This document shows, piece by piece, positions 13,671 through 34,573 of a DNA stretch of 64,000 bases. The translations under genes were made by a program, and so were the position numbers. The stretch lies in assembly GCF_024223415.1 (NCBI RefSeq), contig NZ_CP100500.1; one strand, written 5' to 3'. This stretch comes from Escherichia coli (GTDB lineage Bacteria; Pseudomonadota; Gammaproteobacteria; Enterobacterales; Enterobacteriaceae). Positions within the stretch are counted from its first letter, which is position 1, and each line of letters opens with the position of its first letter. The notes under the pieces are model-generated. The model ran no database searches and had not been told where the DNA came from. It saw nothing but the letters and a program-made list of their open reading frames with translations.

Positions 13671-16600
13671 TTATTCAAACAGGGCTTCAATATCGTTAAT
13701 TAGCTCGCTGGCGGTGATGGCATCGATTACGGAGAACTGCGCTTCCTGTGTTGAATTACTCCCCCAGCCATATCTTTCTGCTTTGCCTTCCCATAGCCAC
13801 AGCTTGCTTAAGAGCTGCTCAGCGCTGAGTTCGGCTGGCGACATGCCTACCGCAAAGCCTTCATCGATTTCCATGATTAACGACCAGCGACCCAAAGGTT
13901 TGATCATCCATCCGATCCAGCCTCCATCCTGTGGTTCGCCCTTTATCCAGCCTTTATTCGCCAGCCCCATGACCCGACCACTCGGGCATTTTCTGCCTGC
14001 CCAGCGGGTCAGTTCACTGGCATTGCGCTCGGCTTCTGTCAGGGCGTAGCTGTTACGGTCGATCTGGCGGAACGGTGGTAGCAGTTCGTAGTCGGCAAAA
14101 AGCTGACCAAAGGCGGCAGCATCCGTTGGTGATATTTCCAGAACGTGAGGAGTGCCGATAGAGATATCGCCTTCCGGCAGGGTGAAAAGATCATCGTCAG
14201 CGGTGCTGGAGCTGTTATCTTCTGCTACGCGAAAGCAAGCCAGTAGCTGGTTTTCGGCGCTATAAACGCCCCAAATCAGACGGCGGGTTAAGTGACGAAC
14301 CAGCGGATGCTCAACCAGGAAGAGCTGGAAGTTTTCCAGCGACCAGCGGCGGCGCAGGCACATGGCGGATTCCAGCCTTGCTACCTGCTGGGCGGCGATG
14401 GTACGCGCATCTTTTTTCAGCAATTTGTAGCGGTTAACCGCATCGTTCGCCCGCGTTTCATCATCGCTTTTGTTCGGTTTGGGCAGGTCTTTCAGGCGGC
14501 TGCCGGAAACATCACGCACAAACGGTTTTAAGGTTTCATCAAAGCTGACGGTGAACTGCCGTGGGCCAAAATCCAGCAGCAGCGAACCGTTATCATCCAG
14601 ACCGAGATCCGGTGCTAACCGATCTTCAAGCTCCGCCACCGTGAGTTCGCGGCTCTCGGCAATGTCGGCAATTTTTTCTTTTGCCCGCTCCTGTAATGCT
14701 TTGAATTTCAGTTTCTGGGCGATGCCGTTAAGCTGCATAAGGGCGATATCACTACCGATAGCAGCGAGAATATCCAACCCAACGGTGGCGCGTTTATGCT
14801 GGGATTCACCAGGCCAGGCGCGTATTAATGGCGTCAGTTTGCGGGCGGTGTCATCGTTACCGAGAACGCCTAACGCAGTGAACGCCCAACTCTCTTTCGA
14901 CGGCGCGCCAGCGGTCTGCCAGGCGGTAAACAGATCCCAGGCAAATCCCGCCAGTGAGTCGGCGGAACAGACGTCTTTCACCTGCAATAATCCCGGATAC
15001 AGAGCCTCTTCCTGAGGGAAGCGGAGCATTTCACCGAGGTGGAGGAGGGCGCTATCTGGCAGTGATTGGGCATTTGCTTTTAATACCGGGCGCGTCCAGA
15101 GCGATGGCTGATAAAAGGCCGGAAGAGTGGGGATTTTTGTCGGGTGATTATCTAAGGGATCGAGCGCAAGCAGAGCGTTCACCGCATCGGTTACTTCCGG
15201 CTGGTTATAACGTCGGGCGATTTCTTGCAGTAATGGCTGATGACCGTTTTCGGTAAGCATACGCAAGGCAGCGCGGGCGTTATCCTGGGCTTCACCGGCT
15301 TTGCCGAGCGCCGCAGGCAGCAGGCCGGTAAGGGCATGTTCCGGGTATTTCAACAGCCAGCTACGGGCGTTTTCGCGTAGCGTTTTCAGTTTGTTGAAGG
15401 CACGGGCGACGGCAGGAGCCAGCTCACTCGCTGCGAAGTAATTCGTGATGGGCAAGGCTTCTTGTGGATAGCGTGCAAGTGAGTTTACTAACCCAGGTAA
15501 CCCTTTGAGTCCAAAATGTAACATGGAGTATTCGGTATCGGTATGTGGAGATAGGGTAAGGGCATTCCATGCTTTTACTGCTTTCTCCAGCGGCAATGTT
15601 GTCAAAATCCCCAACTGCCAATAATGCCCGGTAGGTGAATGAAACACCTTAAATTCACTTAGTAAGGTTGAATAATCTTCATTTAGCCATGCCTCAACTA
15701 CCGCTTCGGGAGCTTTAATATATGTACCAGCGATCCGTCGTTGAAAACCCATCCTTGCCAACAGGTTGGTAGTACTTTCTTCATGGCTAACCGTGATGTG
15801 TTTTGAATACCAGATATATTTCGCCAAAAGTTGATTACTGATTTCTTCTGTCAGATAACAGATTGGCTCAATGCCTAATGGCGCTAAATCCAGCACCGGA
15901 ATCGGCGATTTTTTCTTTTTCGAAAGCCAGGGAGGGGAGACTACTACGGCTGGCAGTAGATCGGCGCTGGCATGGTTTGAGGGCTGTGTCAGTTGTTGCT
16001 GGCATGATTTCAGTACGGCAACTGCGGGTGTCGAGAGCCAGGGAATGACCTGTTCTGCCAGTGCTGGTTGTGAGATAAGCATTGTCATTAGCATAATGCG
16101 CCAACTGTTCTCTTCTTTTTGCCCAAGAAGTTCCGTCAGTGCCGCCATTGCTGCATGTGGGAACGCAGCAATGGCTTTCGTCATCCGATCGTGACAGCGT
16201 TTAGTTTGCCCGGCTACACGTATAAGCAGTGTCAATGCGAACGGATGATTGATATGACGCAACACATCGGCGCAGTAGTCACTTGCGGCATAGGGAGCAA
16301 ATCGGGGCAGGGCTGCAACACCTTGCTCCTGTAATACGGTGGCTGACCATATCGCACCACAATAGTAATCATCAAAAATGGCATATGGTTCGTGATATTT
16401 TTCTAATGAGGCAAGAATGTGCTCATCAGTCGCCACTATTTTTAACCACTCAAGCGAGGGTAATTTTTTTTGCCCCAGTAGACGCTGGGCAATTTCATGT
16501 GCAATTTCTGGTTTTTCGGGTAATAACAAAGCAATTAATGGTTGCCGCCATTCTGGAATATGTGGAATTGCTGCAATAAGTTTTTGTGCACATTTTTGCC

Positions 16601-17465
16601 AGAGAGACTCTTCCGTCAGTGATAAATGTTTACGTAGGCGTAATTCAAATCTGGAATATTGCTCCAAGTAGCTAGGTGCAATGCCAGACGGCAGAATAAT
16701 AATGACATTATTCGCATAATCCCATTCAATATCAATCTGTTGAAGGTGTGTTATTACATCAGTAGCATATTCCAGACCGCCTTCCTGGACGATCTGATCC
16801 ATAACATCCTCACGCACTTTATATCTTGTGCATTTCATTTCAAGTGCCGTGAGTACAGCCATTACTGGTGATGGTAACTGTGTTGTTTTCAGGCCGTCGA
16901 TCTGACTGATCGCCTGGGCGACGGTGTTTTGCCATTCTAAAGAACAGGCGCTGAAGTCAAATGTGGCTGTTTTATTATCCCGTTGCGACACACTACAGGC
17001 TAAGCGACGTAATTGGGTCAATTTGTCTGCTTGCTGAACAGGAACTCCGGGAAAGCGGCGATGACTTAACGTGGTGTGTACAACTTCGGGCGGAAAAACG
17101 ACAGCAATATCTTTCGCCAGCCACGGTAAAACAGCATCTGTATTTTTGTCAGGCGCACGGGTTTCTGCTACGAAAGAGGGTTGTTCCTGAATAATGGTGG
17201 ATAAGTCCGCTACCTTGAGAGAGCCCGTTACCGTTTGGGAAGGTTGCAAAGAATTATCCTTCGCTTGCTCCACATACCCCTTCTTCACCTTCTCCGCAAT
17301 CAGCTTAAGTTCCGCTTTTTCCGCTGCCGCAGCATCTGAAAAACTTTTTATCTGACTTTGCCCTTTGGTGCCAACTTTTCCCCAACTGATATGCAACTCG
17401 TTTCCCTGTTGCTCCACCGCCCAGAATTTATGTGATTTTTCGTCCTGATAGATAAAGTGTCTCAT
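13671..17465 (-). CDS. molR: MolR/YehH-family large protein with N-terminal WGR domain, intact
   Basis: 1264-aa uninterrupted ORF; N-terminus HKFWAVEQQGNELHISWGKVGTKGQ is WGR-like; paralogous to yehI. Confidence 0.8.
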   Translation of the reverse strand: MRHFIYQDEKSHKFWAVEQQGNELHISWGKVGTKGQSQIKSFSDAAAAEKAELKLIAEKVKKGYVEQAKDNSLQPSQTVTGSLKVADLSTIIQEQPSFVAETRAPDKNTDAVLPWLAKDIAVVFPPEVVHTTLSHRRFPGVPVQQADKLTQLRRLACSVSQRDNKTATFDFSACSLEWQNTVAQAISQIDGLKTTQLPSPVMAVLTALEMKCTRYKVREDVMDQIVQEGGLEYATDVITHLQQIDIEWDYANNVIIILPSGIAPSYLEQYSRFELRLRKHLSLTEESLWQKCAQKLIAAIPHIPEWRQPLIALLLPEKPEIAHEIAQRLLGQKKLPSLEWLKIVATDEHILASLEKYHEPYAIFDDYYCGAIWSATVLQEQGVAALPRFAPYAASDYCADVLRHINHPFALTLLIRVAGQTKRCHDRMTKAIAAFPHAAMAALTELLGQKEENSWRIMLMTMLISQPALAEQVIPWLSTPAVAVLKSCQQQLTQPSNHASADLLPAVVVSPPWLSKKKKSPIPVLDLAPLGIEPICYLTEEISNQLLAKYIWYSKHITVSHEESTTNLLARMGFQRRIAGTYIKAPEAVVEAWLNEDYSTLLSEFKVFHSPTGHYWQLGILTTLPLEKAVKAWNALTLSPHTDTEYSMLHFGLKGLPGLVNSLARYPQEALPITNYFAASELAPAVARAFNKLKTLRENARSWLLKYPEHALTGLLPAALGKAGEAQDNARAALRMLTENGHQPLLQEIARRYNQPEVTDAVNALLALDPLDNHPTKIPTLPAFYQPSLWTRPVLKANAQSLPDSALLHLGEMLRFPQEEALYPGLLQVKDVCSADSLAGFAWDLFTAWQTAGAPSKESWAFTALGVLGNDDTARKLTPLIRAWPGESQHKRATVGLDILAAIGSDIALMQLNGIAQKLKFKALQERAKEKIADIAESRELTVAELEDRLAPDLGLDDNGSLLLDFGPRQFTVSFDETLKPFVRDVSGSRLKDLPKPNKSDDETRANDAVNRYKLLKKDARTIAAQQVARLESAMCLRRRWSLENFQLFLVEHPLVRHLTRRLIWGVYSAENQLLACFRVAEDNSSSTADDDLFTLPEGDISIGTPHVLEISPTDAAAFGQLFADYELLPPFRQIDRNSYALTEAERNASELTRWAGRKCPSGRVMGLANKGWIKGEPQDGGWIGWMIKPLGRWSLIMEIDEGFAVGMSPAELSAEQLLSKLWLWEGKAERYGWGSNSTQEAQFSVIDAITASELINDIEALFE

Positions 17466-20880: not shown

Positions 20881-20910
20881 CGCCTATTAACCATTCTGGT
20901 TATTCTTCAT

Positions 20911-20952
20911 ACACCGCAGAGATGTTACATTGATGCGGTGTATTAGTTTTTG
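20911..20952 (+). terminator. Intrinsic terminator after apbC
   Basis: Hairpin acaccgca...tgcggtgt followed by T-rich tract. Confidence 0.5.
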
Positions 20953-21142
20953 CCGCATTAATGAACACTTATTTAATACTGCGAATATTCTGCGGACCTT
21001 CGTCCGAAACTCTACAAAGTCGATTGATCATACAGGCAATGCTTCATTATCATCCTTCGTGGCTGTGTAGTGGATGTACAGCTATAGTTTGTTATGCACT
21101 CATTCTATCCAGGCATAACCTTTACTACAGGGATAACGTTCA

Positions 21143-21424
21143 ATGAATAAGTATTGGCTGTCAGGAATTATTTTTCTTGCCTATGGATTGGCTTCTCCCG
21201 CATTCTCTTCAGAGACTGCCACATTAGCGATTAATGGCAGGATCAGTCCCCCAACATGCAGTATGGCTATGGTTAATGGTCAACCTCAACAGCATTGTGG
21301 TCAGTTAACGTATAATGTTGACACCCGTCATCTGTTTTCTTCGCCCGTCAAAGGTGTAACGACAGAAGTGGTTGTTGCAGGTAGCGATAGCAAACGTCGA
21401 ATCGTGTTAAATCGCTACGATTAA
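21143..21424 (+). CDS. yehE: Small secreted protein YehE
   Basis: 93-aa ORF with signal peptide upstream of the fimbrial operon. Confidence 0.65.
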   Translation: MNKYWLSGIIFLAYGLASPAFSSETATLAINGRISPPTCSMAMVNGQPQQHCGQLTYNVDTRHLFSSPVKGVTTEVVVAGSDSKRRIVLNRYD

Positions 21425-21454
21425 TTTGGCAACCTGATTTTAATTGCATTTAGA

Positions 21455-21492
21455 AAGCCGAAATCATTTATATAAATGATTTCGGCTTTTTT
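21455..21492 (+). terminator. Intrinsic terminator after yehE
   Basis: Hairpin agccgaaatcattta/taaatgatttcggct followed by TTTTTT. Confidence 0.55.
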
Positions 21493-21716
21493 ATTGATAT
21501 CAACAATACCATTTACATAAATCTACATTAATTGATAGATGCGATAAATAGTTAATACTCTTAAATATTTGTTGTATTTATATTGCAATGGTTAATTTGT
21601 TTTAAATCAATAAAACAATGTGTTTACATTGCGGCAACTTTTTTGATGTGAGAAATTTGTTTCCAAGAGATACAGACTCTTAACAACCAAAAATAAATTT
21701 TATTAAGGAACATATT

Positions 21717-22259
21717 ATGAAACGTTCAATTATTGCTGCCGCTGTCTTTTCTTCTTTTTTTATGAGCACTGGAGTATTTTCTGCAGACGTTGATACCGGA
21801 ACATTAACTATTAAGGGGAATATTGCAGAATCTCCGTGTAAATTCGAAGCGGGTGGTGATTCAGTAAGTATTAATATGCCGACTGTACCAACCACTGTCT
21901 TTGAAGGTAAAGCTAAATATTCTACCTATGATGATGCAGTCGGTGTAACCAGCAGCATGTTAAAAATTAGCTGCCCGAAAGAAGTTGCTGGTGTAAAACT
22001 CTCGTTGATTACCAACGATAAAATAACCGGTAACGATAAGGCGATAGCCAGTAGCAACGATACCGTGGGGTACTATCTCTATTTAGGTGATAACAGCGAT
22101 GTCCTGGATGTTTCTGCACCTTTTAACATTGAGAGTTATAAAACAGCGGAAGGTCAATATGCTATTCCGTTTAAAGCAAAATACCTGAAACTGACAGATA
22201 ACTCAGTGCAATCAGGTGATGTGTTATCTTCTCTGGTTATGCGTGTGGCGCAGGATTAA
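21717..22259 (+). CDS. yehD: Fimbrial major subunit-like protein YehD
   Basis: 180-aa ORF with signal peptide and fimbrial-subunit-like C-terminus; first gene of chaperone-usher operon. Confidence 0.85.
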   Translation: MKRSIIAAAVFSSFFMSTGVFSADVDTGTLTIKGNIAESPCKFEAGGDSVSINMPTVPTTVFEGKAKYSTYDDAVGVTSSMLKISCPKEVAGVKLSLITNDKITGNDKAIASSNDTVGYYLYLGDNSDVLDVSAPFNIESYKTAEGQYAIPFKAKYLKLTDNSVQSGDVLSSLVMRVAQD

Positions 22260-22293
22260 TAAATAAAATTGTAAGTTTCTCCAGGTAATAAAC

Positions 22294-23013
22294 ATGGCCG
22301 CTATCCCATGGCGGCCTTTTAATTTAAGAGGCATTAAAATGAAAGGATTATTATCTTTACTCATTTTTTCTATGGTCCTTCCTGCACATGCCGGAATTGT
22401 TATCTACGGGACGCGCATTATTTACCCGGCAGAAAATAAAGAAGTGATGGTGCAGTTGATGAACCAGGGAAACCGTTCTTCGCTGCTGCAGGCGTGGATT
22501 GATGATGGCGATACGTCATTACCACCAGAAAAAATTCAGGTTCCTTTCATGTTAACGCCACCAGTGGCAAAAATAGGGGCAAATTCCGGGCAGCAAGTAA
22601 AAATCAAAATTATGCCGAATAAACTGCCCACTAATAAAGAAAGCATTTTTTATCTGAATGTTCTGGATATTCCACCAAATAGTCCAGAGCAAGAAGGTAA
22701 GAATGCACTGAAGTTTGCGATGCAAAACAGAATTAAGTTGTTTTACCGGCCAGCGGGTATTGCTCCGGTAAATAAAGCGACATTTAAAAAATTGCTGGTA
22801 AATCGCAGTGGCAATGGTTTGGTGATAAAAAATGACTCAGCTAATTGGGTGACGATTTCGGATGTCAAAGCTAATAATGTTAAAGTCAATTATGAAACTA
22901 TTATGATTGCCCCCTTAGAAAGTCAGAGTGTTAATGTCAAAAGTAATAATGCAAATAACTGGTATCTGACCATTATCGATGACCACGGCAACTATATTAG
23001 TGACAAAATTTAA
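22294..23013 (+). CDS. yehC: Periplasmic fimbrial chaperone YehC
   Basis: PapD-like chaperone features; the actual start may be the internal ATG at 22339 (MKGLLSLL signal peptide). Confidence 0.8.
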   Translation: MAAIPWRPFNLRGIKMKGLLSLLIFSMVLPAHAGIVIYGTRIIYPAENKEVMVQLMNQGNRSSLLQAWIDDGDTSLPPEKIQVPFMLTPPVAKIGANSGQQVKIKIMPNKLPTNKESIFYLNVLDIPPNSPEQEGKNALKFAMQNRIKLFYRPAGIAPVNKATFKKLLVNRSGNGLVIKNDSANWVTISDVKANNVKVNYETIMIAPLESQSVNVKSNNANNWYLTIIDDHGNYISDKI

Positions 23014-23028
23014 TTGCAGGAGCTGCCT

Positions 23029-25509
23029 ATGTTGAGAATGACCCCACTTGCATCAGCAATCGTAGCGTTATTGCTCGGCATTGAAGCTTATGCAGCTGAA
23101 GAAACCTTTGATACCCATTTTATGATAGGTGGAATGAAAGACCAGCAGGTTGCAAATATTCGTCTTGATGATAATCAACCCTTGCCGGGGCAGTATGACA
23201 TCGATATTTATGTCAATAAGCAATGGCGCGGGAAATATGAGATCATTGTTAAAGACAACCCGCAAGAAACATGTTTATCAAGAGAAGTTATCAAGCGGTT
23301 AGGCATTAATAGCGATAACTTCGCCAGCGGTAAGCAATGTTTAACATTTGAGCAACTTGTTCAGGGGGGGAGCTATAGCTGGGATATCGGGGTTTTTCGT
23401 CTCGATTTCAGTGTCCCGCAGGCTTGGGTGGAAGAACTGGAAAGTGGCTATGTTCCACCGGAAAACTGGGAGCGGGGTATTAATGCGTTTTATACCTCTT
23501 ATTATGTGAGTCAGTATTACAGCGACTATAAAGCGTCGGGTAATAACAAGAGTACATATGTACGTTTTAACAGCGGGTTAAATTTACTGGGGTGGCAACT
23601 GCATTCTGATGCCAGTTTCAGTAAAACAAATAACAATCCAGGGGTGTGGAAAAGCAATACCCTGTATCTGGAACGTGGATTTGCCCAACTTCTCGGCACG
23701 CTTCGCGTGGGTGATATGTACACATCAAGCGATATTTTTGATTCTGTTCGCTTCAGCGGTGTGCGGTTGTTTCGTGATATGCAGATGTTGCCTAACTCGA
23801 AACAAAATTTTACGCCACGGGTGCAGGGGATTGCTCAGAGTAACGCGCTGGTAACTATTGAACAGAATGGTTTTGTGGTTTATCAGAAAGAGGTTCCTCC
23901 TGGCCCGTTTGCGATTACAGATTTGCAGTTGGCCGGTGGTGGAGCGGATCTTGATGTCAGCGTGAAAGAGGCGGACGGTTCGGTAACCACCTATCTGGTG
24001 CCTTATGCAGCGGTGCCAAATATGCTGCAACCCGGCGTGTCGAAATATGATTTTGCGGCGGGTCGTAGCCATATTGAAGGGGCGAGCAAACAAAGTGATT
24101 TTGTCCAGGCGGGTTATCAGTATGGTTTTAATAACTTATTGACGCTGTATGGTGGCTCGATGGTTGCTAATAATTACTATGCCTTTACTTTGGGGACTGG
24201 CTGGAATACACGCATTGGTGCCATTTCCGTCGATGCCACGAAGTCGCATAGTAAACAAGACAACGGCGATGTGTTTGACGGGCAAAGTTATCAAATTGCC
24301 TACAACAAATTTGTGAGCCAAACGTCGACGCGTTTTGGTCTGGCGGCCTGGCGTTATTCGTCGCGTGATTACCGGACATTTAACGATCACGTTTGGGCAA
24401 ACAATAAAGATAATTATCGCCGTGATGAAAACGATGTCTATGACATTGCCGATTATTACCAGAATGATTTTGGTCGCAAAAATAGCTTTTCCGCCAATAT
24501 GAGCCAGTCATTGCCAGAAGGTTGGGGGTCTGTGTCATTAAGTACGTTATGGCGAGATTACTGGGGGCGTAGCGGCAGTAGTAAGGATTATCAGTTGAGT
24601 TATTCCAACAACCTGCGACGGATAAGCTATACCCTCGCGGCAAGCCAGGCTTATGACGAGAATCATCATGAAGAGAAACGTTTTAATATTTTTATATCGA
24701 TTCCCTTTGATTGGGGTGATGACGTTTCGACGCCTCGTCGGCAAATATATATGTCTAACTCAACGACGTTTGATGATCAGGGGTTTGCCTCAAATAATAC
24801 GGGATTATCAGGAACAGTAGGGAGTCGGGATCAGTTCAATTATGGTGTCAACCTGAGTCATCAACATCAGGGAAATGAAACGACAGCTGGGGCGAATTTG
24901 ACCTGGAACGCGCCGGTTGCGACAGTGAATGGCAGTTATAGTCAGTCGAGTACTTATCGACAGGCTGGAGCCAGTGTTTCAGGGGGCATTGTCGCCTGGT
25001 CGGGTGGCGTTAATCTGGCGAACCGTCTTTCCGAAACGTTTGCTGTGATGAATGCGCCAGGAATTAAAGATGCTTATGTCAATGGGCAAAAATATCGCAC
25101 AACAAACCGTAATGGAGTGGTGATATACGACGGAATGACACCTTATCGGGAAAATCACCTGATGCTGGATGTGTCGCAAAGCGATAGCGAAGCAGAATTA
25201 CGTGGCAACCGGAAAATTGCCGCCCCTTATCGCGGCGCGGTTGTACTGGTTAATTTTGATACCGATCAGCGCAAGCCCTGGTTTATTAAAGCGTTAAGAG
25301 CGGATGGTCAACCATTAATGTTTGGTTATGAAGTCAATGATATCCATGGTCATAATATTGGCGTTGTCGGCCAGGGAAGCCAGTTATTTATTCGCACCAA
25401 TGAAGTACCGCCATCGGTTAATGTGGCAATTGATAAGCAACAAGGACTTTCATGCACAATCACCTTCGGTAAAGAGATTGATGAAAGTAGAAATTATATT
25501 TGCCAGTAA
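23029..25509 (+). CDS. yehB: Outer-membrane fimbrial usher YehB
   Basis: 826-aa usher-like ORF with signal peptide MLRMTPLASAIVALLLG. Confidence 0.85.
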   Translation: MLRMTPLASAIVALLLGIEAYAAEETFDTHFMIGGMKDQQVANIRLDDNQPLPGQYDIDIYVNKQWRGKYEIIVKDNPQETCLSREVIKRLGINSDNFASGKQCLTFEQLVQGGSYSWDIGVFRLDFSVPQAWVEELESGYVPPENWERGINAFYTSYYVSQYYSDYKASGNNKSTYVRFNSGLNLLGWQLHSDASFSKTNNNPGVWKSNTLYLERGFAQLLGTLRVGDMYTSSDIFDSVRFSGVRLFRDMQMLPNSKQNFTPRVQGIAQSNALVTIEQNGFVVYQKEVPPGPFAITDLQLAGGGADLDVSVKEADGSVTTYLVPYAAVPNMLQPGVSKYDFAAGRSHIEGASKQSDFVQAGYQYGFNNLLTLYGGSMVANNYYAFTLGTGWNTRIGAISVDATKSHSKQDNGDVFDGQSYQIAYNKFVSQTSTRFGLAAWRYSSRDYRTFNDHVWANNKDNYRRDENDVYDIADYYQNDFGRKNSFSANMSQSLPEGWGSVSLSTLWRDYWGRSGSSKDYQLSYSNNLRRISYTLAASQAYDENHHEEKRFNIFISIPFDWGDDVSTPRRQIYMSNSTTFDDQGFASNNTGLSGTVGSRDQFNYGVNLSHQHQGNETTAGANLTWNAPVATVNGSYSQSSTYRQAGASVSGGIVAWSGGVNLANRLSETFAVMNAPGIKDAYVNGQKYRTTNRNGVVIYDGMTPYRENHLMLDVSQSDSEAELRGNRKIAAPYRGAVVLVNFDTDQRKPWFIKALRADGQPLMFGYEVNDIHGHNIGVVGQGSQLFIRTNEVPPSVNVAIDKQQGLSCTITFGKEIDESRNYICQ

Positions 25510-25524
25510 TAGTCAGGTGGTTCT

Positions 25525-26559
25525 ATGGAAATTCGCATAATGCTATTTATATTAATGATGATGGTTATGCCTGTGAGCTATGCGGCATGTTATAGTGAGT
25601 TATCTGTTCAGCACAATTTGGTTGTTCAGGGGGATTTTGCACTTACTCAAACACAAATGGCGACATATGAGCATAATTTTAATGATTCGTCATGCGTGAG
25701 TACAAATACTATCACCCCTATGAGCCCGTCGGATATTATTGTTGGACTTTATAACGATACCATTAAATTAAATTTACATTTTGAATGGACCAATAAAAAC
25801 AACATCACGTTGTCAAATAATCAGACCAGTTTCACCAGTGGTTATTCAGTTACGGTGACACCTGCGGCCAGTAATGCAAAAGTGAATGTTTCTGCGGGGG
25901 GCGGCGGTTCAGTGATGATTAATGGTGTTGCGACATTATCCAGTGCTTCATCATCGACACGCGGGAGTGCCGCAGTACAATTTCTACTGTGTTTATTAGG
26001 TGGCAAGTCATGGGATGCATGTGTAAATAGCTACAGAAATGCATTGGCACAAAATGCAGGTGTCTATTCCTTTAATCTGACATTGTCATACAACCCGATA
26101 ACCACAACCTGCAAACCGGACGATTTATTAATTACTTTAGACAGTATTCCCGTTTCACAATTACCAGCCACAGGTAACAAAGCAACAATAAATAGTAAAA
26201 AAGAGGATATTATTCTGCGTTGTAAAAATTTATTAGGTCAACAAAATCAAACATCACGGAAAATGCAGGTGTATTTATCAAGTTCTGACTTGTTAACCAA
26301 CAGCAACACAATACTGAAAGGTGCGGAAGATAATGGCGTAGGATTTATTCTTGAAAGTAATGGTTCGCCAGTCACACTTTTAAATATCACTAACAGCAGT
26401 AAAGGATACACAAATTTAAAAGAAATTGCGGCAAAGTCAAAACTTACAGATACAACGGTTTCAATTCCGATAACAGCCAGTTACTACGTCTACGATACAA
26501 ATAAAATTAAATCTGGCGCACTGGAGGCAACCGCATTAATCAACGTGAAATACGACTAA
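25525..26559 (+). CDS. yehA: Fimbrial adhesin-like protein YehA
   Basis: 344-aa ORF with signal peptide, last gene of the chaperone-usher cluster. Confidence 0.8.
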   Translation: MEIRIMLFILMMMVMPVSYAACYSELSVQHNLVVQGDFALTQTQMATYEHNFNDSSCVSTNTITPMSPSDIIVGLYNDTIKLNLHFEWTNKNNITLSNNQTSFTSGYSVTVTPAASNAKVNVSAGGGGSVMINGVATLSSASSSTRGSAAVQFLLCLLGGKSWDACVNSYRNALAQNAGVYSFNLTLSYNPITTTCKPDDLLITLDSIPVSQLPATGNKATINSKKEDIILRCKNLLGQQNQTSRKMQVYLSSSDLLTNSNTILKGAEDNGVGFILESNGSPVTLLNITNSSKGYTNLKEIAAKSKLTDTTVSIPITASYYVYDTNKIKSGALEATALINVKYD

Positions 26560-27197: not shown

Positions 27198-28022
27198 TTA
27201 TCGCATTATGCCCATGAAGCCATGTACGCCCATATACACACCGACTAAGCCAATCAACAGACTGGAAAAATAGGGGGCGCGTTTAGCGAGAGTGTTAAAT
27301 CCGCTCCAGCGTTTTGCGACCTGCTGAACGCTGATTGCTGCGCCAACGCCTACGGTGACAAGCGTTAACGCCAGGCCAATGCTGAAACTGACGACCAGTG
27401 TTGCGCCCAGTGTCAGGGCTTTCAACTGAATGCAAATCAACAGCACGGTAATTGCTGCCGGACAGGGGATAAGACCACCTGTTAAGCCAAATAACAAAAT
27501 TTGCCAGTTGGTGACCTCTCTACCATCAAAGCGTCGTTTAATATCATTGGCATGGGCTCGTGCATGGGCATCCTGATACTCGCCATGTTCGTGATGGTGA
27601 TGATGTCCATGGTCGTGGTGATCTTCGTGATCGTGGTGATGATGTTCATGATCATACTCGTGCATATTCTCCAGCCAGTTGCGTTCGCCGCGCCAGGTAC
27701 GCCAGAACATCCAGAACGCGGTGCCAATAATGATCACTGCGGAAATCAGCTGGAGCCACGGTTCTGCTGATTGAGCAGTAAAGCGCTTGCTGATCACCAT
27801 CCCGCCAAAGGCAATTAACCAGACCACTGCGGTATGCGAAATAGTTGCTGCCAGTCCGAGCATCACCGCCTGTTTAATGGTGCCTTTGATGGCGATGATA
27901 AACGCCGCCATCATCGTTTTTGAGTGCCCTGGTTCCAGGCCATGAAGCGCACCAAGTAAGATGGCGCTGGGGATGAAGAACCAGGCGTTTCCTTGCTGAA
28001 GAAGAGTTGTAAATTCGGTCAT
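27198..28022 (-). CDS. rcnA: Nickel/cobalt efflux protein RcnA
   Basis: Membrane protein with a long His-rich loop (HEYDHEHHHHDHEDHHDHGHHHHHEHGE) visible in translation. Confidence 0.9.
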   Translation of the reverse strand: MTEFTTLLQQGNAWFFIPSAILLGALHGLEPGHSKTMMAAFIIAIKGTIKQAVMLGLAATISHTAVVWLIAFGGMVISKRFTAQSAEPWLQLISAVIIIGTAFWMFWRTWRGERNWLENMHEYDHEHHHHDHEDHHDHGHHHHHEHGEYQDAHARAHANDIKRRFDGREVTNWQILLFGLTGGLIPCPAAITVLLICIQLKALTLGATLVVSFSIGLALTLVTVGVGAAISVQQVAKRWSGFNTLAKRAPYFSSLLIGLVGVYMGVHGFMGIMR

Positions 28023-28059
28023 GATAATAATTCTTAGTATTAATTCGGCAATCTGATTC

Positions 28060-28095
28060 TACTCCCCCCCCAGTACCTGATACTACCCCCCAGTA
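28060..28095. promoter_or_regulatory. Two RcnR operator-like sites (TACT-C-tract-AGTA) in the rcnA-rcnR divergent region
   Basis: tactccccccccagta at 28060-28075 and tactaccccccagta at 28081-28095. Confidence 0.7.
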
Positions 28096-28143
28096 GATTA
28101 ATAGTGCTATGATTTTTCATATTCTTGTTAACCAGGTGTTGCC

Positions 28144-28416
28144 ATGTCTCATACAATCCGTGATAAACAGAAACTGAAAGCGCGTGCCAGTAAGATTCAG
28201 GGCCAGGTCGTGGCGCTCAAGAAAATGCTCGACGAGCCGCACGAATGCGCTGCAGTTTTACAACAGATTGCTGCTATCCGTGGCGCGGTAAACGGTCTGA
28301 TGCGGGAAGTGATTAAAGGTCATCTGACGGAACACATCGTTCACCAGGGGGATGAGCTAAAACGTGAAGAAGATCTGGATGTCGTTCTGAAGGTGCTGGA
28401 TTCATATATCAAATAA
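28144..28416 (+). CDS. rcnR: Ni/Co-responsive transcriptional repressor RcnR
   Basis: 90-aa CsoR/RcnR-family protein. Confidence 0.9.
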
Positions 28417-28504
28417 TTTATTAACGCGATTGTAAAACTGCCGTTTTTCCTCGTTTACAACGCGTGCGCTGGACATTACCATCCTCCTCTGCGATTTATC
28501 ATCG

Positions 28505-28557
28505 CAACCAAACGACTCGGGGTGCCCTTCTGCGTGAAGGCTGAGAAATACCCGTAT
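28505..28557 (+). ncRNA. 5' fragment of thiM TPP riboswitch aptamer, severed from thiMD by the island insertion
   Basis: Sequence aaccaaacgactcggggtgcccttctgcgtgaaggctgagaaatacccgtat matches the 5' half of the thiM thi-box leader, then diverges into island DNA. Confidence 0.75.
28544..28557. repeat. attL core: 14-bp direct repeat AGAAATACCCGTAT
   Basis: Identical 14-mer found again at 39954-39967 at the other island boundary; both lie within riboswitch sequence. Confidence 0.75.
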
Positions 28558-28643
28558 TTTCTCATTTAGTGTTTTTTGTGGTTCGGGGTTGTTCGTGGTT
28601 GTTTGTGTATGTGTTTGATATATATTGAATTATTGTGTTTTCT

Positions 28644-28718
28644 TGTTTGTTGTTGTTCGTCGTTGTTCGTAGAGCTTCAACAAAATGTGTGGTCAGTTGT
28701 GTGGTCAGTTTTTTGAGG
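28644..28718. repeat. Left copy of ~75-bp near-identical direct repeat just inside the island end
   Basis: ttgttcgtcgttgttcgtagagcttcaacaaaatgtgtggtcagttgtgtggtcagtttt shared with 39821-39895; contains internal TTGTTCGT and TGTGGTCAGTT sub-repeats. Confidence 0.85.
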
Positions 28719-28745
28719 CTGGAGGACTGAAAAGAGGATCTGATA

Positions 28746-29969
28746 GTGGGAAAAGCACTAAACAAACTGAGCGATTCGACGTTAAAAAAATTGGCGTCTG
28801 TCCAAGCAGAAAAAGAGCGTTTTTACTCCGACGGGGGCGGGCTGGAGATTAAACACTCAAAGGGCGGCAAATTAACCTGGTATTTCCGGTACCGAACGGG
28901 AGGCCGTGAGGTTGCCGCAGAGCGGTTAAAGCTGGGGGCTTACCCTGAATTGTCGCTGAAAGCTGCAAGGGAAAAACGCGCACAGTGCCGGGCATGGCTG
29001 GCTGAGGGTAAAAACCCCCGTTATGAGTTGTGCGCCACAGTACAGGAAGCGCTAAAACCCGTTACGGTGAAGGAGGCGATTAACTACTGGCTGGATGAAT
29101 ATGCGAAGGATAACCGCAAAGACTACATAAAGCTGGTGCAACGTATGGATAAGCACATCATTTGCCATATAGGGGCAATTCCCCTTGATAAGTGTGATAC
29201 AAGGCAGTGGATCGCATGTTTTGACCGTGTACGAAAAAAAGCACCAGTAGCAGCAGGGCACGTCATGCAAACCTGCAAACAGGCGCTAAAGTTCTGCCGC
29301 AGGAGACGCTACGCGTTCAGTAATGCCCTGGACGATTTGATCGTCAGCGATGTGGGTAAGAGAGCAGAAATTCGCGAGAGGGTGCACAGCAACAGCGAAT
29401 TAAAGGAAATTTTACGCGCTATTGATGGTGATGTGTTCGCGCCTTACTACAGCGCGTTAATGCGCTTGCTGATTGTGTTCGGGTGCAGAACGGCAGAGGT
29501 CAGACTTTCAGAGATCAAAGAATGGGATCTGAAAGAAATGTTGTGGACAGTGCCAAAAGAGCATAGCAAAACGAAGGTAACGATATTCAGGCCAATCCCC
29601 GATGGCATTTTGCCGTTCATTCAGAAGCTGGTGGAGCAGAACCGGCATACAGGGTTATTACTCGGAGAACTGAAAAAAGATACCACGGTAGCGCAATATG
29701 GGCGAAATGCGCATAAGCGGCTTAACCAGGAACACTGGACGCTGCATGACTTTCGCCACACGTTTACAACGATGCTGAACGATTTAGGTGTCGATCCGCA
29801 TATCGTGGAGCACATCACAGCGCATCAGATGCCCGGTCAGCAAAAAACCTATAACCATTCACGCTATTTACAGGCGAAGCGAGACGCTCTGAATCTGTGG
29901 GTTGAGCGCCTCGATGTGCTGGCTGGAAATCATGAAAATATTGTCATATTAAGGGCTGAAAATGAATAA
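28746..29969 (+). CDS. int: Tyrosine recombinase, P4-type integrase
   Basis: N-terminal arm-binding-like segment (SDGGGLEIKHSKGGKLTWYFRYR) and C-terminal catalytic region (HDFRHTFTT...); apparent GTG start. Confidence 0.9.
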   Translation: MGKALNKLSDSTLKKLASVQAEKERFYSDGGGLEIKHSKGGKLTWYFRYRTGGREVAAERLKLGAYPELSLKAAREKRAQCRAWLAEGKNPRYELCATVQEALKPVTVKEAINYWLDEYAKDNRKDYIKLVQRMDKHIICHIGAIPLDKCDTRQWIACFDRVRKKAPVAAGHVMQTCKQALKFCRRRRYAFSNALDDLIVSDVGKRAEIRERVHSNSELKEILRAIDGDVFAPYYSALMRLLIVFGCRTAEVRLSEIKEWDLKEMLWTVPKEHSKTKVTIFRPIPDGILPFIQKLVEQNRHTGLLLGELKKDTTVAQYGRNAHKRLNQEHWTLHDFRHTFTTMLNDLGVDPHIVEHITAHQMPGQQKTYNHSRYLQAKRDALNLWVERLDVLAGNHENIVILRAENE

Positions 29970-30747
29970 TCTGGGCCGTGTATATCATACGCTGCCAATG
30001 GCAGCTAAAAAAATGGGATGTACTGTAGAGGATATTCTACATTTTGGTGCAACTAACCGACTTGAAATATGTGCGTATATTGATGATATTGAACAGAGAA
30101 AAGATTATTGCACTTTTAATGTGTTTTTTGATAATGAAGATAGCGAGAATAGTTTTTCTAAAACTATAAATAAATATAATTCCATATTTACTGACATGTA
30201 TGAAATATCATTGTTTAATTATAATGATGAGTTTTGTGTTGATGATGAGCGTATGGTTATTGAAGGTTTGTATGCTAATCATATGAAAGGCTTTTTTGCA
30301 ATACCATCTGAATTTCTTGTCGAAGTTGAATTGTCAAGTGCCTGTGAAATCATAAATCTATCGCCTCGTTATTTATATACACCGAAAGGTTATGGTGATT
30401 ATATTCGGTTGGATAGTATAGAAGGTCTTTCTATTCCAGAAAACAGGCTCGTGATATTCGATAGTGAGATATCGGGTTTTAATTATCAAAAGAAACCTAA
30501 ATATGCCGGAGGTGAAAGAGAATCACCTAAAACCAGAGCTAAAAAAGCCGAGATAATACCTGCTCTCATAAAACTGATCCCTGAGATGCAAGATGTGGAT
30601 TTGGAGGATACACCCGTATCCAAAATTGCAGAAATGATAGAGGTTATTGCTGCACAAAGAGGGGTTGAGTTACCTAGCACTCACAGGCAGACATGGCAGA
30701 AATATTTAGGGCGTGATGCTGGTGACGTTCCAAAACGTCAAAAGTGA
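29962..30747 (+). CDS. Hypothetical cargo protein, AT-rich, translationally coupled to int
   Basis: 261-aa ORF overlapping int stop by 8 bp; noticeably lower GC than flanks; no motif recognised. Confidence 0.6.
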   Translation: MNNLGRVYHTLPMAAKKMGCTVEDILHFGATNRLEICAYIDDIEQRKDYCTFNVFFDNEDSENSFSKTINKYNSIFTDMYEISLFNYNDEFCVDDERMVIEGLYANHMKGFFAIPSEFLVEVELSSACEIINLSPRYLYTPKGYGDYIRLDSIEGLSIPENRLVIFDSEISGFNYQKKPKYAGGERESPKTRAKKAEIIPALIKLIPEMQDVDLEDTPVSKIAEMIEVIAAQRGVELPSTHRQTWQKYLGRDAGDVPKRQK

Positions 30748-30803
30748 TATCACGTACAGATAGTGTGATATCACACAAACGGCATTTTACCACCGCCTAG
30801 AAT

Positions 30804-30837
30804 CGTCCTCGTTCGGCAACGTTCGAGGACGTTTTTT
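30804..30837 (+). terminator. Hairpin plus T-run immediately upstream of alpA start
   Basis: cgtcctcg...cgaggacg followed by TTTTTT then ATG; the 3' arm contains the GAGGA Shine-Dalgarno-like sequence. Confidence 0.5.
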
Positions 30838-31062
30838 ATGAATCAAAATACACAATTTCAATCACTATCAGATCGCGTAATCCGTGAGGATGAATGCCGT
30901 AAGTTAACAGGAGTGTGCCGCACTACACGCTACGAACTGGAGAAAAAAGGGAGCTTTCCGTCTCGCCGTAATCTTGGTGGGCGTTCTGTAGGTTGGCTGC
31001 TGTCCGAGGTTATGGAATGGGTTAAAAGCCGGGATCGCATTAATTCAGGCAAGGCAGCGTAA
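30838..31062 (+). CDS. alpA: AlpA-family phage transcriptional regulator
   Basis: 74-aa small HTH protein with typical AlpA-like pattern (SDRVIREDECRKLTGVCRTTRYELEKKGSFP). Confidence 0.8.
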   Translation: MNQNTQFQSLSDRVIREDECRKLTGVCRTTRYELEKKGSFPSRRNLGGRSVGWLLSEVMEWVKSRDRINSGKAA

Positions 31063-31200
31063 AGGGGAGTATATGACACATAAAACAAAGGCGACCGGGG
31101 GCGGTCGCCAATGGGAAAACACTAAACATAAGCCCGGCCATCATAGCGATTTGCTGGCTGGTGGGCAATGTGTCCAGTGTGGTGGCTTGCTGGTGGATTG

Positions 31201-31428
31201 TCAGCCAGGCGGTCGGTTTTTGCCGGATTTAAGCCGCCGTGGGTATTTATCGACAAAATCTTCAAGGGCAAATTTTTCTGGTGGCACTAAGCGCGGCGCT
31301 GGTGGTGGTATTTTTGTTCTGGTTAGTTCTTCCTCAAGTCTGGCGCAGGCTTCTGACTGCCTTTGCCGGATGATTTCATCATCTTGCGTTTGCGTGTCTT
31401 GTATTGGTGATAGTGTGTTGTTGGTCAT
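31201..31428 (-). CDS. Hypothetical protein, second gene of leftward operon
   Basis: 75-aa ORF downstream of the RHH-like gene on the minus strand, followed by a hairpin at 31094-31112. Confidence 0.45.
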   Translation of the reverse strand: MTNNTLSPIQDTQTQDDEIIRQRQSEACARLEEELTRTKIPPPAPRLVPPEKFALEDFVDKYPRRLKSGKNRPPG

Positions 31429-31485
31429 GATACTGCCCTGTAAAGCAATGCGCCGTAGTACCTCACACCACGGCGCTGATAGTGA

Positions 31486-31683
31486 TTATTCTGATTCTTT
31501 GGCCTTGCGGCGCTGTTCATATTTTAATTTGCGTCCACAGGCATCTAAGACCCATGCGGAAAAATTAGCACTAGGATTAGTTAATTTTTCTTGTTCAACG
31601 CTGGCATCAATCCCATCTATAAGCTCATGTGGGAATCGAATATTTTTCTTTGCTGATTTGTTGTTTGTGTTACCACTAGACAT
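31486..31683 (-). CDS. Putative ribbon-helix-helix DNA-binding protein, candidate island repressor
   Basis: 65-aa ORF; N-terminal KKNIRFPHELIDGID resembles the beta-strand/helix of CopG/Arc-type RHH proteins; divergent from rightward operon. Confidence 0.45.
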   Translation of the reverse strand: MSSGNTNNKSAKKNIRFPHELIDGIDASVEQEKLTNPSANFSAWVLDACGRKLKYEQRRKAKESE

Positions 31684-31710
31684 TGATGCACCTCACTTAA
31701 ATGGACTTTA

Positions 31711-31790
31711 TGGGCGCACACAATACAGCAAAAAAAGTGAGAAGTTAAGTATTGACATGTGCGCACACATGATTCTAATCTGTGCGCACA
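31711..31790. promoter_or_regulatory. Divergent promoter/operator region with three copies of palindrome TGTGCGCACA
   Basis: tgggcgcaca (31711-31720), tgtgcgcaca (31758-31767), tgtgcgcaca (31781-31790); TTGACA at 31752-31757 immediately precedes the second site. Confidence 0.55.
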
Positions 31791-31882
31791 GTTTGGGTTG
31801 CATTGCTCAAATTAAGCAACGCCCCGCAGTGCTCGCAACACATGCAGGGCGTCTAACCAAACCGTTAATAGGAGTAACGATT

Positions 31883-32083
31883 ATGGCTGGAACACAGCAT
31901 ACCCCACGCCTTGCGCACACACAAACCGCCTTTGTGTGGCGTTTTCTGGCACTGAGTGCCGGAGAATCTCAAATTATCCACGTAACCGCCTGGACGGAAC
32001 GCGAAGCGCGTAACCGTTGCCCGTCCGGTTGTGTCGCTGTATTCGCCGCCCGTATCCGTCAGGGGGAAACCTATGCACAATAA
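31883..32083 (+). CDS. Small protein, possibly Icd-like (host cell division inhibitor family)
   Basis: 67-aa ORF with good RBS (aggag), first gene of rightward operon; family assignment from memory of similar small P4-like proteins, weak. Confidence 0.4.
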   Translation: MAGTQHTPRLAHTQTAFVWRFLALSAGESQIIHVTAWTEREARNRCPSGCVAVFAARIRQGETYAQ

Positions 32084-32303
32084 AACAACACCGGACGCAG
32101 CAGAAGAAGCAATGCAAATACTGATACGTGCGCTCGTTGATGTTACCCACATGGTGGAGATTATGGAGAGAAAATCACAGTCGGAGCACGACAAAAGAAA
32201 ACTTAAAACAATAAAAATAATTGCCAAAAACTCGCTGATAAAAGTTACAGACATCCTTAATGAGGACATTAAAAGAATCAGGGAGAAAGTGTGTGATGCA
32301 TAA
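32073..32303 (+). CDS. Hypothetical protein
   Basis: 76-aa ORF, start overlaps upstream stop, RBS ggggga. Confidence 0.45.
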   Translation: MHNKTTPDAAEEAMQILIRALVDVTHMVEIMERKSQSEHDKRKLKTIKIIAKNSLIKVTDILNEDIKRIREKVCDA

Positions 32304-32523
32304 AATACCTTTTGATGTTCTTATTCATTCTGAAAACGCATTAATCCGTGCAAAGGAAATGGACGCATTACTACTTAAGTTAATTGATGTGCCGGAAAGT
32401 GGCGATGAATCTGATTCAATAATGTTTTCTGCCGTGCGTACGCTATTAACGCATGTTATTAATGAATTAAATACAGTGATGGCAATTCACGAGAATAATA
32501 AAGCGCAGCACACCGGAGAATAA
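32296..32523 (+). CDS. Hypothetical protein
   Basis: 75-aa ORF, start overlaps upstream stop, RBS gggaga. Confidence 0.45.
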   Translation: MHKIPFDVLIHSENALIRAKEMDALLLKLIDVPESGDESDSIMFSAVRTLLTHVINELNTVMAIHENNKAQHTGE

Positions 32524-32528
32524 AAACC

Positions 32529-32828
32529 ATGAAAAATAAAAATTCTGGCGTTAATGCCAGCGGCCCCGCTCGGCCTGAATTTATGAACGGCGATATTTAC
32601 CGCGACCAGTACGGCGGCACGGTAACGATTAAAGGCGTGGAGGAACGGCGCATCACTTACCGCCGTGAAGGCTACGAATATGATTGCGTGATGCCTGTTT
32701 ATCAGTTCCGGCGTGATTTTTCTCTGGTACAGGCAGCGCCCCGCAGTAAACCAACCAGCAGGGAGAAAGCACGCGCCAATATTCAGGAAATAAAAAAGAT
32801 GCTTAACGTATTCAGGGGTAAAAAATGA
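32529..32828 (+). CDS. Hypothetical protein
   Basis: 99-aa ORF, ATGA-coupled to the primase gene. Confidence 0.45.
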   Translation: MKNKNSGVNASGPARPEFMNGDIYRDQYGGTVTIKGVEERRITYRREGYEYDCVMPVYQFRRDFSLVQAAPRSKPTSREKARANIQEIKKMLNVFRGKK

Positions 32829-34573
32829 AACTGGCACCGAACGTAAAAAAACAGCCGCGTGGAATAAAACACAAAGACACAGAGGTGATTATCTTTGCGG
32901 GTAGTGATGCCTGGGCGCACGCGAAACAGTGGCAGGAACAGGACGGCCCCGCATCCGGCGATGATGTGCCGCCTGTGTGGCTCGGGCCAAATCAGCTTGC
33001 TGAACTGGATGCACTGAAAATTGTACCGGAGGGAAAAAAACGCGTAAGGCTGTACAGGGCCGGAGAACTGGATTTGGTGGAGACCAAAAAGATTGGTCAG
33101 AAGCTGGCGGCGGCAGATATTCAGGATGCGAATTTTTACTCTGAAGGAATGCACGGCCAGAAGGTGCAGAACTGGCGGCGCTATCTGAGTGCTGAGCGTG
33201 AAAATATTGCCGCAGGGCTTACCATGCCGGAACAGAAAAAAGCACAACTTTCACAGATGGCAGACAGTGAACGGGCACAGCTTCTTTCTTCCCGCTTTGA
33301 TGGTGTCTGCGTCCATGCAGAAAGTGAAATCGTTCACGTATGGCGCGGCGGGGTATGGTGTCCGGTCAGCACAATGGAACTTAGCCGCGAAATGGTGGCG
33401 ATCTATTCAGAGCACAGGGCCACTTTCAGCAAGCGCGTAATCAATAACGCCGTGGAAGCGTTAAAAGTTATTGCCGAACCAATGGGCGAGCCGTCCGGCG
33501 ATTTGCTGCCGTTCGCCAATGGTGCGCTTGACCTGAAAACGGGGGAATTTTCCCCGCACACGCCGGAGAACTGGATCACCACGCACAACGGCATTGAGTA
33601 CACGCCACCAGCACCAGGGGAGAATATCTGCGACAACGCGCCAAACTTTCATAAATGGCTTGAGCACGCAGCCGGAAAAGACCCGCGCAAGATGATGCGT
33701 ATATGTGCCGCGCTGTACATGATTATGGCGAACCGGTACGACTGGCAGATGTTTATTGAGGCCACCGGAGACGGCGGGAGCGGCAAAAGTACATTCACAC
33801 ACATAGCCAGCCTTCTGGCAGGGAAACAGAACACGGTAAGCGCTGAGATGACATCGCTTGATGATGCTGGTGGGCGTGCGCAGGTTGTCGGGAGTCGGCT
33901 TATTGTCCTGGCAGACCAGCCGAAATATACAGGCGAAGGAACGGGCATCAAGAAAATCACGGGCGGAGACCCCGTGGAAATAAACCCGAAATATGAGAAG
34001 CGTTTTACGGCGGTAATCAGGGCGGTGGTGCTGGCTACCAACAATAACCCGATGATATTCACCGAACGGGCCGGAGGTGTGTCACGTCGTCGCGTAATTT
34101 TCCGTTTCGACAATATCGTCAGTGAGGCTGAAAAAGACAGGGAGCTACCGGAAAAGATTGCGGCTGAAATCCCTGTCATTATCCGCCGCTTGCTGGCGAA
34201 CTTTGCCGACCCTGAAAAGGCACGGGCTTTACTCATTGAACAGCGAGACGGTGATGAAGCTCTGGCAATAAAGCAACAGACGGATCCGGTTATTGAGTTT
34301 TGCCAGTTTCTGAATTTTCTGGAGGAAGCGCGCGGCCTGATGATGGGCGGCGGCGGTGACTCTTCCAGGTACACGACCAGAAACAGCCTTTACCGCGTCT
34401 ATCTGGCGTTTATGGCGTATGCAGGCAGGAGCAAACCGCTAAACGTAAATGACTTTGGCAAGGCTATGAAGCCAGCGGCGAAAGTTTACGGACATGAATA
34501 TATAACGCGCAGGATTAAAGGGTTTACGCAAACCAACGTGACAACAACAGACGACTGCGACGCGTTTTTATAA
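32825..34573 (+). CDS. Phage/plasmid primase, P4 family (NTPase/helicase domain)
   Basis: 582-aa ORF with Walker A GDGGSGKST and D5/P4-alpha-like C-terminal NTPase architecture. Confidence 0.8.
   Translation: MKLAPNVKKQPRGIKHKDTEVIIFAGSDAWAHAKQWQEQDGPASGDDVPPVWLGPNQLAELDALKIVPEGKKRVRLYRAGELDLVETKKIGQKLAAADIQDANFYSEGMHGQKVQNWRRYLSAERENIAAGLTMPEQKKAQLSQMADSERAQLLSSRFDGVCVHAESEIVHVWRGGVWCPVSTMELSREMVAIYSEHRATFSKRVINNAVEALKVIAEPMGEPSGDLLPFANGALDLKTGEFSPHTPENWITTHNGIEYTPPAPGENICDNAPNFHKWLEHAAGKDPRKMMRICAALYMIMANRYDWQMFIEATGDGGSGKSTFTHIASLLAGKQNTVSAEMTSLDDAGGRAQVVGSRLIVLADQPKYTGEGTGIKKITGGDPVEINPKYEKRFTAVIRAVVLATNNNPMIFTERAGGVSRRRVIFRFDNIVSEAEKDRELPEKIAAEIPVIIRRLLANFADPEKARALLIEQRDGDEALAIKQQTDPVIEFCQFLNFLEEARGLMMGGGGDSSRYTTRNSLYRVYLAFMAYAGRSKPLNVNDFGKAMKPAAKVYGHEYITRRIKGFTQTNVTTTDDCDAFL

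Follow-up and report, generated by a model that had tools for sequence, protein, structure and literature searches.

The AT-rich yehE-yehD spacer of Escherichia coli, a probable composite control region of the yehDCBA fimbrial operon

Introduction

Promoter islands (Panyukov & Ozoline 2013; Shavkunov et al. 2009) are AT-rich, H-NS-bound and almost silent stretches of DNA whose neighbours are predicted to be foreign. The spacer between yehE and yehD of Escherichia coli is itself listed among them. In Table 1 of Panyukov & Ozoline 2013 (PMC3661553), it appears as '2190229_357 yehD(-)/yehE(-)', 1 of 78 promoter islands, and there the island is placed within predicted foreign DNA, GIST and IslandViewer both calling the yehE-yehA block a genomic island. 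The promoter-island description does not separate the yehE terminator from the conserved core, both of which are described below.

The downstream operon belongs to the same class as the cryptic chaperone-usher operons of K-12 that are counter-silenced by SlyA and LeuO (elf/ycb, sfm and yad; fimB and hlyE are also grouped with them), sharing their behaviour and their AT-rich upstream DNA. Unlike many H-NS targets, the yeh locus is ancient and syntenic in Escherichia, Citrobacter, and Salmonella, and was not recently acquired. Wurpel et al. 2013 (PMC3559732) described Yeh as a core-associated gamma4 fimbria, which occupies one and the same locus in Salmonella (Stc) and Citrobacter and which 92% of strains carry intact. 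Two other known arrangements are close. One is the set of ArcA-P-repressed promoters with multiple repeats (PMC3798270), in most of which, as at yehD, the site overlaps the best promoter candidate. The other is the phase switches fimS and pap, where the control region likewise lies upstream of the major subunit gene and where H-NS also acts.

Here, the spacer was analyzed within a 64-kb stretch of E. coli DNA (the window), following an original prediction that a strongly AT-rich leader with A/T tracts, typical of H-NS-silenced cryptic fimbrial operons, precedes yehD.

Results

Position and composition of the spacer

The genes and the spacer are arranged as follows.

21143 to 21424, plus strand: yehE (DUF2574, 93 aa), from the open reading frame, the RefSeq annotation and Pfam PF10836 on homologues
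21425 to 21716, plus strand: yehE-yehD intergenic region, 292 bp, G+C 0.247
21717 to 26559, plus strand: yehD, yehC, yehB and yehA, a gamma4 chaperone-usher fimbrial operon, from the open reading frames and the RefSeq annotation
NC_000913.3 2192223-2192514: MG1655 equivalent of the spacer

Bounded by the yehE stop codon (TAA at 21422-21424) on the left and by the yehD ATG (21717) on the right, 21425-21716 is the entire spacer. Upstream of yehE lie apbC (mrp) and metG, and yehC, yehB, and yehA follow yehD on the same strand. The genes had been correctly named in the original prediction, as yehE, yehD, yehC, yehB, and yehA carry identical names in the RefSeq annotation of MG1655 and of strain 600468, the latter being 100% identical to the window over this region. 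Neither of these two annotations has a feature inside the spacer, and the MG1655 spacer differs from that of the window by a single base.

The stretch of about 290 bp reported as strongly AT-rich coincides exactly with the spacer and is the extreme of the window in composition. Its G+C content is 0.247 against 0.498 for the 64 kb as a whole; 0.05% of all 292-bp frames in the window are as low, and the lowest of them (0.240) starts at 21431. The window has 26 inter-ORF gaps that measure 80 bp or more, with a median of 0.43; the spacer has the lowest value of these, and the next lowest is 0.318. The flanks differ from each other, with a G+C content of 0.53 in apbC and 0.415 from yehE to yehA, and GC3 is 0.34-0.37 in the yehE-yehA block versus 0.61-0.62 in apbC and metG.

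A/T tracts are indeed present, as seven runs of A or T of at least four bases, but this is the number expected from same-composition shuffles (7.1 +/- 2.3). No AA/TT periodicity of 10-11 bp was found in the spacer, A-tracts being neither enriched nor phased, and TpA steps are fewer than in shuffled sequences (32 vs 41). The tracts are thus a by-product of AT-richness and not an additional feature.

The spacer was aligned with four other E. coli alleles, two further Escherichia lineages, E. albertii, E. whittamii, C. koseri, and C. freundii, the Citrobacter outgroups having been found through YehC. Judged from this alignment, it is composed of three parts (terminator, filler, and conserved core) and does not behave as one uniform leader. 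The first ~70 bp accordingly go with yehE, as its terminator, and do not form part of a leader of yehD. In Citrobacter, direct inspection of the sequence confirmed the same order of metG, apbC, yehE, spacer, yehD, yehC, yehB, and yehA. The Citrobacter spacer measures 278 bp with a G+C content of 0.245-0.259, and shares the terminator position and the core blocks with the window, whereas its hairpin sequence and filler are entirely different. Searches with the YehE protein gave matches in Escherichia and Shigella only, two of which, at 59-63% identity, come from error-laden Escherichia assemblies.

Several features of the surrounding DNA were noted in passing. Directly after apbC, at 20909-20943, a 17-nt imperfect palindrome (ATACACCGCAGAGATGT / ACATTGATGCGGTGTAT) is probably the apbC terminator, and yehE could be transcribed from a promoter-like TTGATC, 18-nt spacer, TATCAT at 21024-21053. 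Beside metG, on the minus strand at 13671-17465, there is an intact ORF of 1264 aa, for which the matching strain has a DUF4132 annotation; in K-12, this gene (molR) is a pseudogene. An integrative element containing integrase, primase-family, and Icd-like genes lies beside rcnA, at about 27700-33500. This element is missing from the strain otherwise identical at yeh, and at least 80% of the 7-kb stretch is covered in only 1 of 5426 complete E. coli genomes. Its lowest G+C content (0.27, around 29926-30450) ranks second in AT-richness within the window.

A covarying hairpin at the end of yehE

21452 to 21492, plus strand: predicted intrinsic (Rho-independent) terminator of yehE, from fold and covariation

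The first part of the spacer is a hairpin starting 27 nt 3' of the yehE TAA stop. Its core stem pairs 21457-21469 with 21474-21486 around a 4-nt loop and is followed by a T6 tract (21487-21492); as 21454-21489 is a perfect 36-nt palindrome, the stem can be drawn with 13-18 bp (an 18-bp hairpin overall). The predicted fold has an energy of -23.6 kcal/mol (z = -7.1). Across nine distinct Escherichia versions, 98.3% of the stem cells are paired, and four stem pairs (nine cells) show compensatory double changes, from CG to UA, from GC to AU or UA, and from AU to GC. This level of covariation was reached by none of 500 shuffles, and controls in slid registers were 28-50% paired. In C. koseri and C. 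freundii, hairpins of other sequence, again with a T-run, occupy the same position. We read the hairpin as a selected Rho-independent terminator, which would efficiently end the yehE transcript. If yehE is ended by its own terminator, then yehDCBA must use a promoter of its own within the remaining ~220 bp. In published work, yehD is treated as the first gene of the locus (PMC11287998), and the locus is written yehEDCBA in a 2024 preprint.

The hairpin was not reported by a simple consensus terminator scan, probably because the palindrome has no formal loop. A second copy per genome in BLAST was rejected as an artefact of the 36-nt palindrome matching itself on the other strand; it does not represent a repeat family.

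A permissive search of the spacer against Rfam 15 gave no family at gathering score. The best matches, all from the terminator hairpin, were eukaryotic hairpin families (miRNA and snoRNA) at 17-28 bits against thresholds of 60-102 bits. These weak matches, which the strength of the hairpin brings about, could be taken to mean that the spacer encodes a product of its own, a small RNA or a small protein, the more so as it contains several ORFs of 21-29 codons, one of them (21618-21683) inside the core. We consider such a product hardly credible, since all Rfam matches are below threshold, RefSeq has no feature here, and no small ORF is conserved in frame. Most other alleles read AATATG in place of AATGTG, which puts the 21618 ATG into another frame that is closed by a stop 8 codons on; in PE144, the frame is disrupted by an inserted T.

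Filler and core evolve at different rates

21498 to 21564, strand not assigned: variable AT-rich filler, 67 bp, G+C about 0.2
21565 to 21686, plus strand: conserved regulatory core (probable promoter or promoters, operator, and start of the 5' UTR), 122 bp, from cross-genus identity
21665 to 21681, plus strand: short stem, AAGAG (21665-21669) with CTCTT (21677-21681), a possible RNA 5' stem or protein site, from sequence comparison

Compared with the O157 allele of E. coli, with other Escherichia species, and with Citrobacter, the filler shows 45-58% identity, which equals that of silent sites. The core, in contrast, keeps 89-95% identity in the O157 allele, E. albertii, and E. whittamii, against 75-81% for the DNA of yehE and yehD there. 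In C. koseri and C. freundii, the core still reaches 79%, with apbC down to 50-53% at its four-fold degenerate sites. Silent sites of the flanking genes are thus near saturation at distances over which the core retains 79-95% identity, and the alignment argues for strong purifying selection on the core.

The possibility that the low G+C content simply reflects a foreign origin or drift by mutation, and that the spacer is a non-functional part of a decaying cryptic operon, has several observations in its favor. Low G+C (0.415) extends over the entire yehE-yehA block, genomic-island flags were raised by GIST and IslandViewer, the middle 67 bp evolve at silent-site speed, and in some strains IS elements have landed in the spacer or yehB is a pseudogene. 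This explanation is nevertheless very unlikely in view of the compensatory evolution in the terminator and of a 122-bp core that is far more conserved than silent sites in two genera. Synteny of the locus moreover extends to Citrobacter and Salmonella, about 92% of E. coli strains carry it intact, and 5314 of 5426 complete E. coli genomes contain the downstream 217 bp of the spacer. The Citrobacter spacer is also equally AT-rich (G+C 0.245-0.259), which indicates that the composition is maintained.

A phase-variation switch, either an invertible element of the fimS type or a Dam/Lrp methylation switch of the pap type, would fit the leader of a fimbrial operon of about this size, and a 15-nt imperfect inverted repeat (21489-21503/21601-21615, 87% complementary) brackets the variable segment. 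The repeat is of the kind that arises by chance in DNA with 75% A+T, its left arm is not conserved, and no significant inverted repeats were found in the spacer. There is no GATC anywhere in the spacer, and no recombinase or papI/papB-like gene is adjacent. All 15 aligned spacers from E. coli, other Escherichia, and Citrobacter are collinear without an inverted form, and the partial spacer matches inspected were IS insertions only. A switch of either type has next to no probability.

Disruptions of the locus were seen in individual strains. E. coli ES9 has an IS5 inserted after base 33 of the spacer and has lost yehD, yehC, and most of yehB (4034-5280 of its record). In E. coli LP5-1, ISApl1 (IS30 family) lies between the terminator and the conserved core (1251-2615 of its record). 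The yehB gene is annotated as a pseudogene both in O157 (Z1626; 3089-3262 of its record) and in LP5-1 (3929-5115), with an internal stop in one and a frameshift in the other. The pseudogenes indicate that the yeh operon is decaying in some lineages, the control region being conserved nonetheless. The O157:H7 allele (75% and 80% DNA identity to the window in yehE and yehD, respectively) is almost the same as that of Escherichia sp. E1V33, with an identical terminator sequence, which suggests that the yeh locus has either been dimorphic for a long time or been exchanged between clades.

Promoter candidates and the ArcA operator

21601 to 21630, plus strand: candidate promoter P1, TTTAAA, 18-nt spacer, TACATT, among the top PWM matches
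21629 to 21657, plus strand: candidate promoter P2, TTGCGG, 17-nt spacer, TGaGAAATT (extended -10), read from the sequence
21598 to 21640, minus strand: published ArcA-P operator with 3-4 direct repeats, a 43-nt site from the supplement of Park et al. 2013 (PMC3798270)

P1 sits inside the ArcA box with a predicted start at ~21636-21638, and its two hexamers show little or no change between E. coli and Citrobacter. For P2, a weaker match than P1, the predicted start is ~21665, and TTGC, GTGTG, and AATTT are conserved across genera. Both candidates are poor promoter matches. A simple sigma-70 scan of the spacer gave no promoter-like excess, with 2 sites against 2.3 +/- 1.7 in dinucleotide shuffles; at this stringency, the "island" property of the spacer reduces to AT-richness, the published listing resting on PlatProm. 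In Park et al. 2013 (PMC3798270), the yehD entry is marked "no TSS". As no transcription start site is on record for yehD, we infer the promoter placement from the sequence.

When reverse-complemented, the published 43-nt ArcA site of yehD matches 21598-21640 exactly, which puts it midway along the conserved core. The same study (PMC3798270) lists yehDCBA as directly repressed by ArcA and up 5.4-fold in an arcA mutant; the site scores 12.3 bits, and the ChIP-seq peak was seen in one replicate only. No match to the ArcA 16-mer consensus was found in the site within 3 mismatches. Since ArcA-P would overlap the likely -35 and -10 elements, it may act by promoter occlusion, although the site is weak.

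Shine-Dalgarno region and 5' UTR

21705 to 21719, plus strand: Shine-Dalgarno sequence and CsrA GGA site AAGGA (21705-21709), 7-nt spacer, and yehD ATG (21717)

The Shine-Dalgarno sequence ATTAAGGA is invariant in 11 of 11 sequences, as is the yehD ATG. Gonyar and colleagues (mSphere 2024, PMC11287998) showed by EMSA that in EHEC CsrA shifts RNA of the yeh 5' UTR in a GG-dependent manner at the GGA proximal to the Shine-Dalgarno sequence. In that work, CsrA is a positive regulator of yeh in EHEC 86-24, where ethanolamine plus B12 induces, and negative regulation by CsrA is reported in another EHEC strain.

Conservation runs about 45 bp past the ArcA box, with 21641-21686 nearly invariant in Escherichia. 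This segment includes the short stem at 21665-21681, the arms of which are invariant; its loop differs in sequence and length in Citrobacter, and two of its pairs are broken in one lineage (E. coli E69). RNAalifold additionally pairs UUCC (21661-21664) with GGAA of the Shine-Dalgarno sequence. No covariation was found for this 5' UTR structure, the observed values being matched in 67-369 of 500 shuffles, where sequence variation is small.

A dedicated cis element in the core, namely an activator site or a 5' UTR RNA stem or anti-Shine-Dalgarno pairing acting with CsrA, could then be the main determinant of yehDCBA expression, with H-NS generic and secondary. Such an element would account for the conservation beyond the ArcA box and for arms that are invariant while the loop varies, and it is in keeping with the UUCC:GGAA pairing, with the binding of the UTR by CsrA, and with the failure of the operon to be induced on removal of its protein-occupancy domain (see below). 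The RNA structure, however, has no covariation support (67-369 of 500 shuffles are as high), the short stem is broken in one lineage, Rfam gives no match for the spacer at threshold, the yeh locus encodes no regulator (PMC11287998), and no start site shows that the stretch is transcribed. We regard this alternative as unlikely. A more limited version, in which the 122-bp core holds something beyond the weak ArcA box, either an activator site or a 5' UTR element deciding when Yeh fimbriae are made, is somewhat more plausible though still doubtful; such an element could be the invariant AAGAG/CTCTT stem, which may lie at the mRNA 5' end, or the UUCC able to mask the Shine-Dalgarno/CsrA site.

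Farther downstream, the yehD-yehC spacer (22296-22316) contains a GC-rich hairpin, GGCCGCTAT CCC ATGGCGGCC followed by TTTTAATTT, directly after the major-subunit gene, and E. albertii, C. koseri, and C. freundii have hairpins of other sequence in that position. It looks like the attenuator or mRNA stabilizer that usually follows the subunit gene in chaperone-usher operons. The K-12 start of yehC (239 aa, ATG at 22294) lies within the hairpin, and the PGAP start (224 aa, 22339, preceded by AAGAGG) fits better.

H-NS, SlyA, and other regulators

21530 to 21539, minus strand: H-NS nucleation motif match, 8/10
21541 to 21550, plus strand: H-NS nucleation motif match, 8/10, GCGATAAATA
21426-21437, 21450-21461 and 21680-21691: weak SlyA-consensus matches (9/12)

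The interpretation of the AT-rich DNA as H-NS-silenced finds support in the literature. In PMC3661553, the island is scored as H-NS-bound in two of three published ChIP data sets, those of Kahramanoglou (MG1655) and Oshima (W3110) and not that of Grainger, as far as its Table 1 reports. Curran et al. 2017 (PMC5797941) assign yehDCBA to the H-NS regulon (K, O) and give a 3.6-fold rise upon SlyA over-production, and Korea et al. 2010, as cited there, found yehDCBA to be cryptic, functional when forced, and repressed by H-NS. A 2024 preprint places yehEDCBA within a static extended protein-occupancy domain (EPOD). Published work thus supports, via secondary sources, both H-NS occupancy of the spacer and H-NS repression of yehDCBA. 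The best matches to the H-NS nucleation motif (tCGATAAATT) in the spacer reach only 8/10 (n = 2), and both lie in the non-conserved filler.

H-NS is not the whole story, as EPOD loss alone does not switch yehDCBA on according to the same preprint. Control by H-NS alone is also at odds with the conservation of the promoter-proximal 120 bp together with the ArcA and CsrA sites. The description of the operon as cryptic holds on the evidence of Korea et al. 2010 as cited, in a relative sense only: yeh-lacZ was active in static LB, and more so at 28 C, in Low et al. 2006 as cited, and the operon is induced by ethanolamine in EHEC. Over-expression of BolA raises yehD and yehC, according to the literature.

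With the SlyA consensus TTAGCAAGCTAA, the window has 39 matches at up to 3 mismatches, 3 of which fall in the 292-bp spacer against about 0.2 expected pro rata. This excess is partly due to AT-richness; it is in line with the reported SlyA effect and proves nothing.

Discussion

The spacer is very probably a composite control region of an ancient core-genome fimbrial locus, in which a yehE terminator, H-NS-silenced AT-rich DNA, and a conserved core with promoter, ArcA, and CsrA sites are combined. The strong hairpin and its U-tract would end the yehE transcript, and yehDCBA would start from a separate promoter. The rest of the spacer (about 75% A+T) and the AT-rich body of the operon would be coated by H-NS, leaving the yehD promoter nearly off in laboratory culture. 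Silencing may be relieved by SlyA, possibly by BolA, and by ethanolamine signaling in EHEC, with low temperature or static growth as reported conditions. The 120-bp core would hold the promoter or promoters and an ArcA-P operator placed over the likely -35 and -10 elements, giving anaerobic repression. A short 5' UTR would follow, in which the GGA of the Shine-Dalgarno region is bound by CsrA.

In this scheme, the compositional outlier, the structure and covariation of the terminator, the three-part conservation, and the mapping of the ArcA box were observed here. The occupancy and repression by H-NS and the effects of SlyA, ArcA, CsrA, BolA, and ethanolamine are taken from the literature, and the essentials of the region, and hence the finding as such, are already known. 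The modest additions are the recognition of the yehE hairpin as a probable selected terminator and the sharp limits of the 122-bp core around the published ArcA box.

The spacer is a textbook-type H-NS target that genome-scale studies had already catalogued, and the results matter little beyond a tidy annotation. If the core did hold an activator site or a 5' UTR element in addition to the ArcA box, yehDCBA would be a tightly conditional operon and not a silenced relic. For work on Yeh fimbriae, the core at 21565-21686 marks where the yehD promoter and its regulators may be sought.
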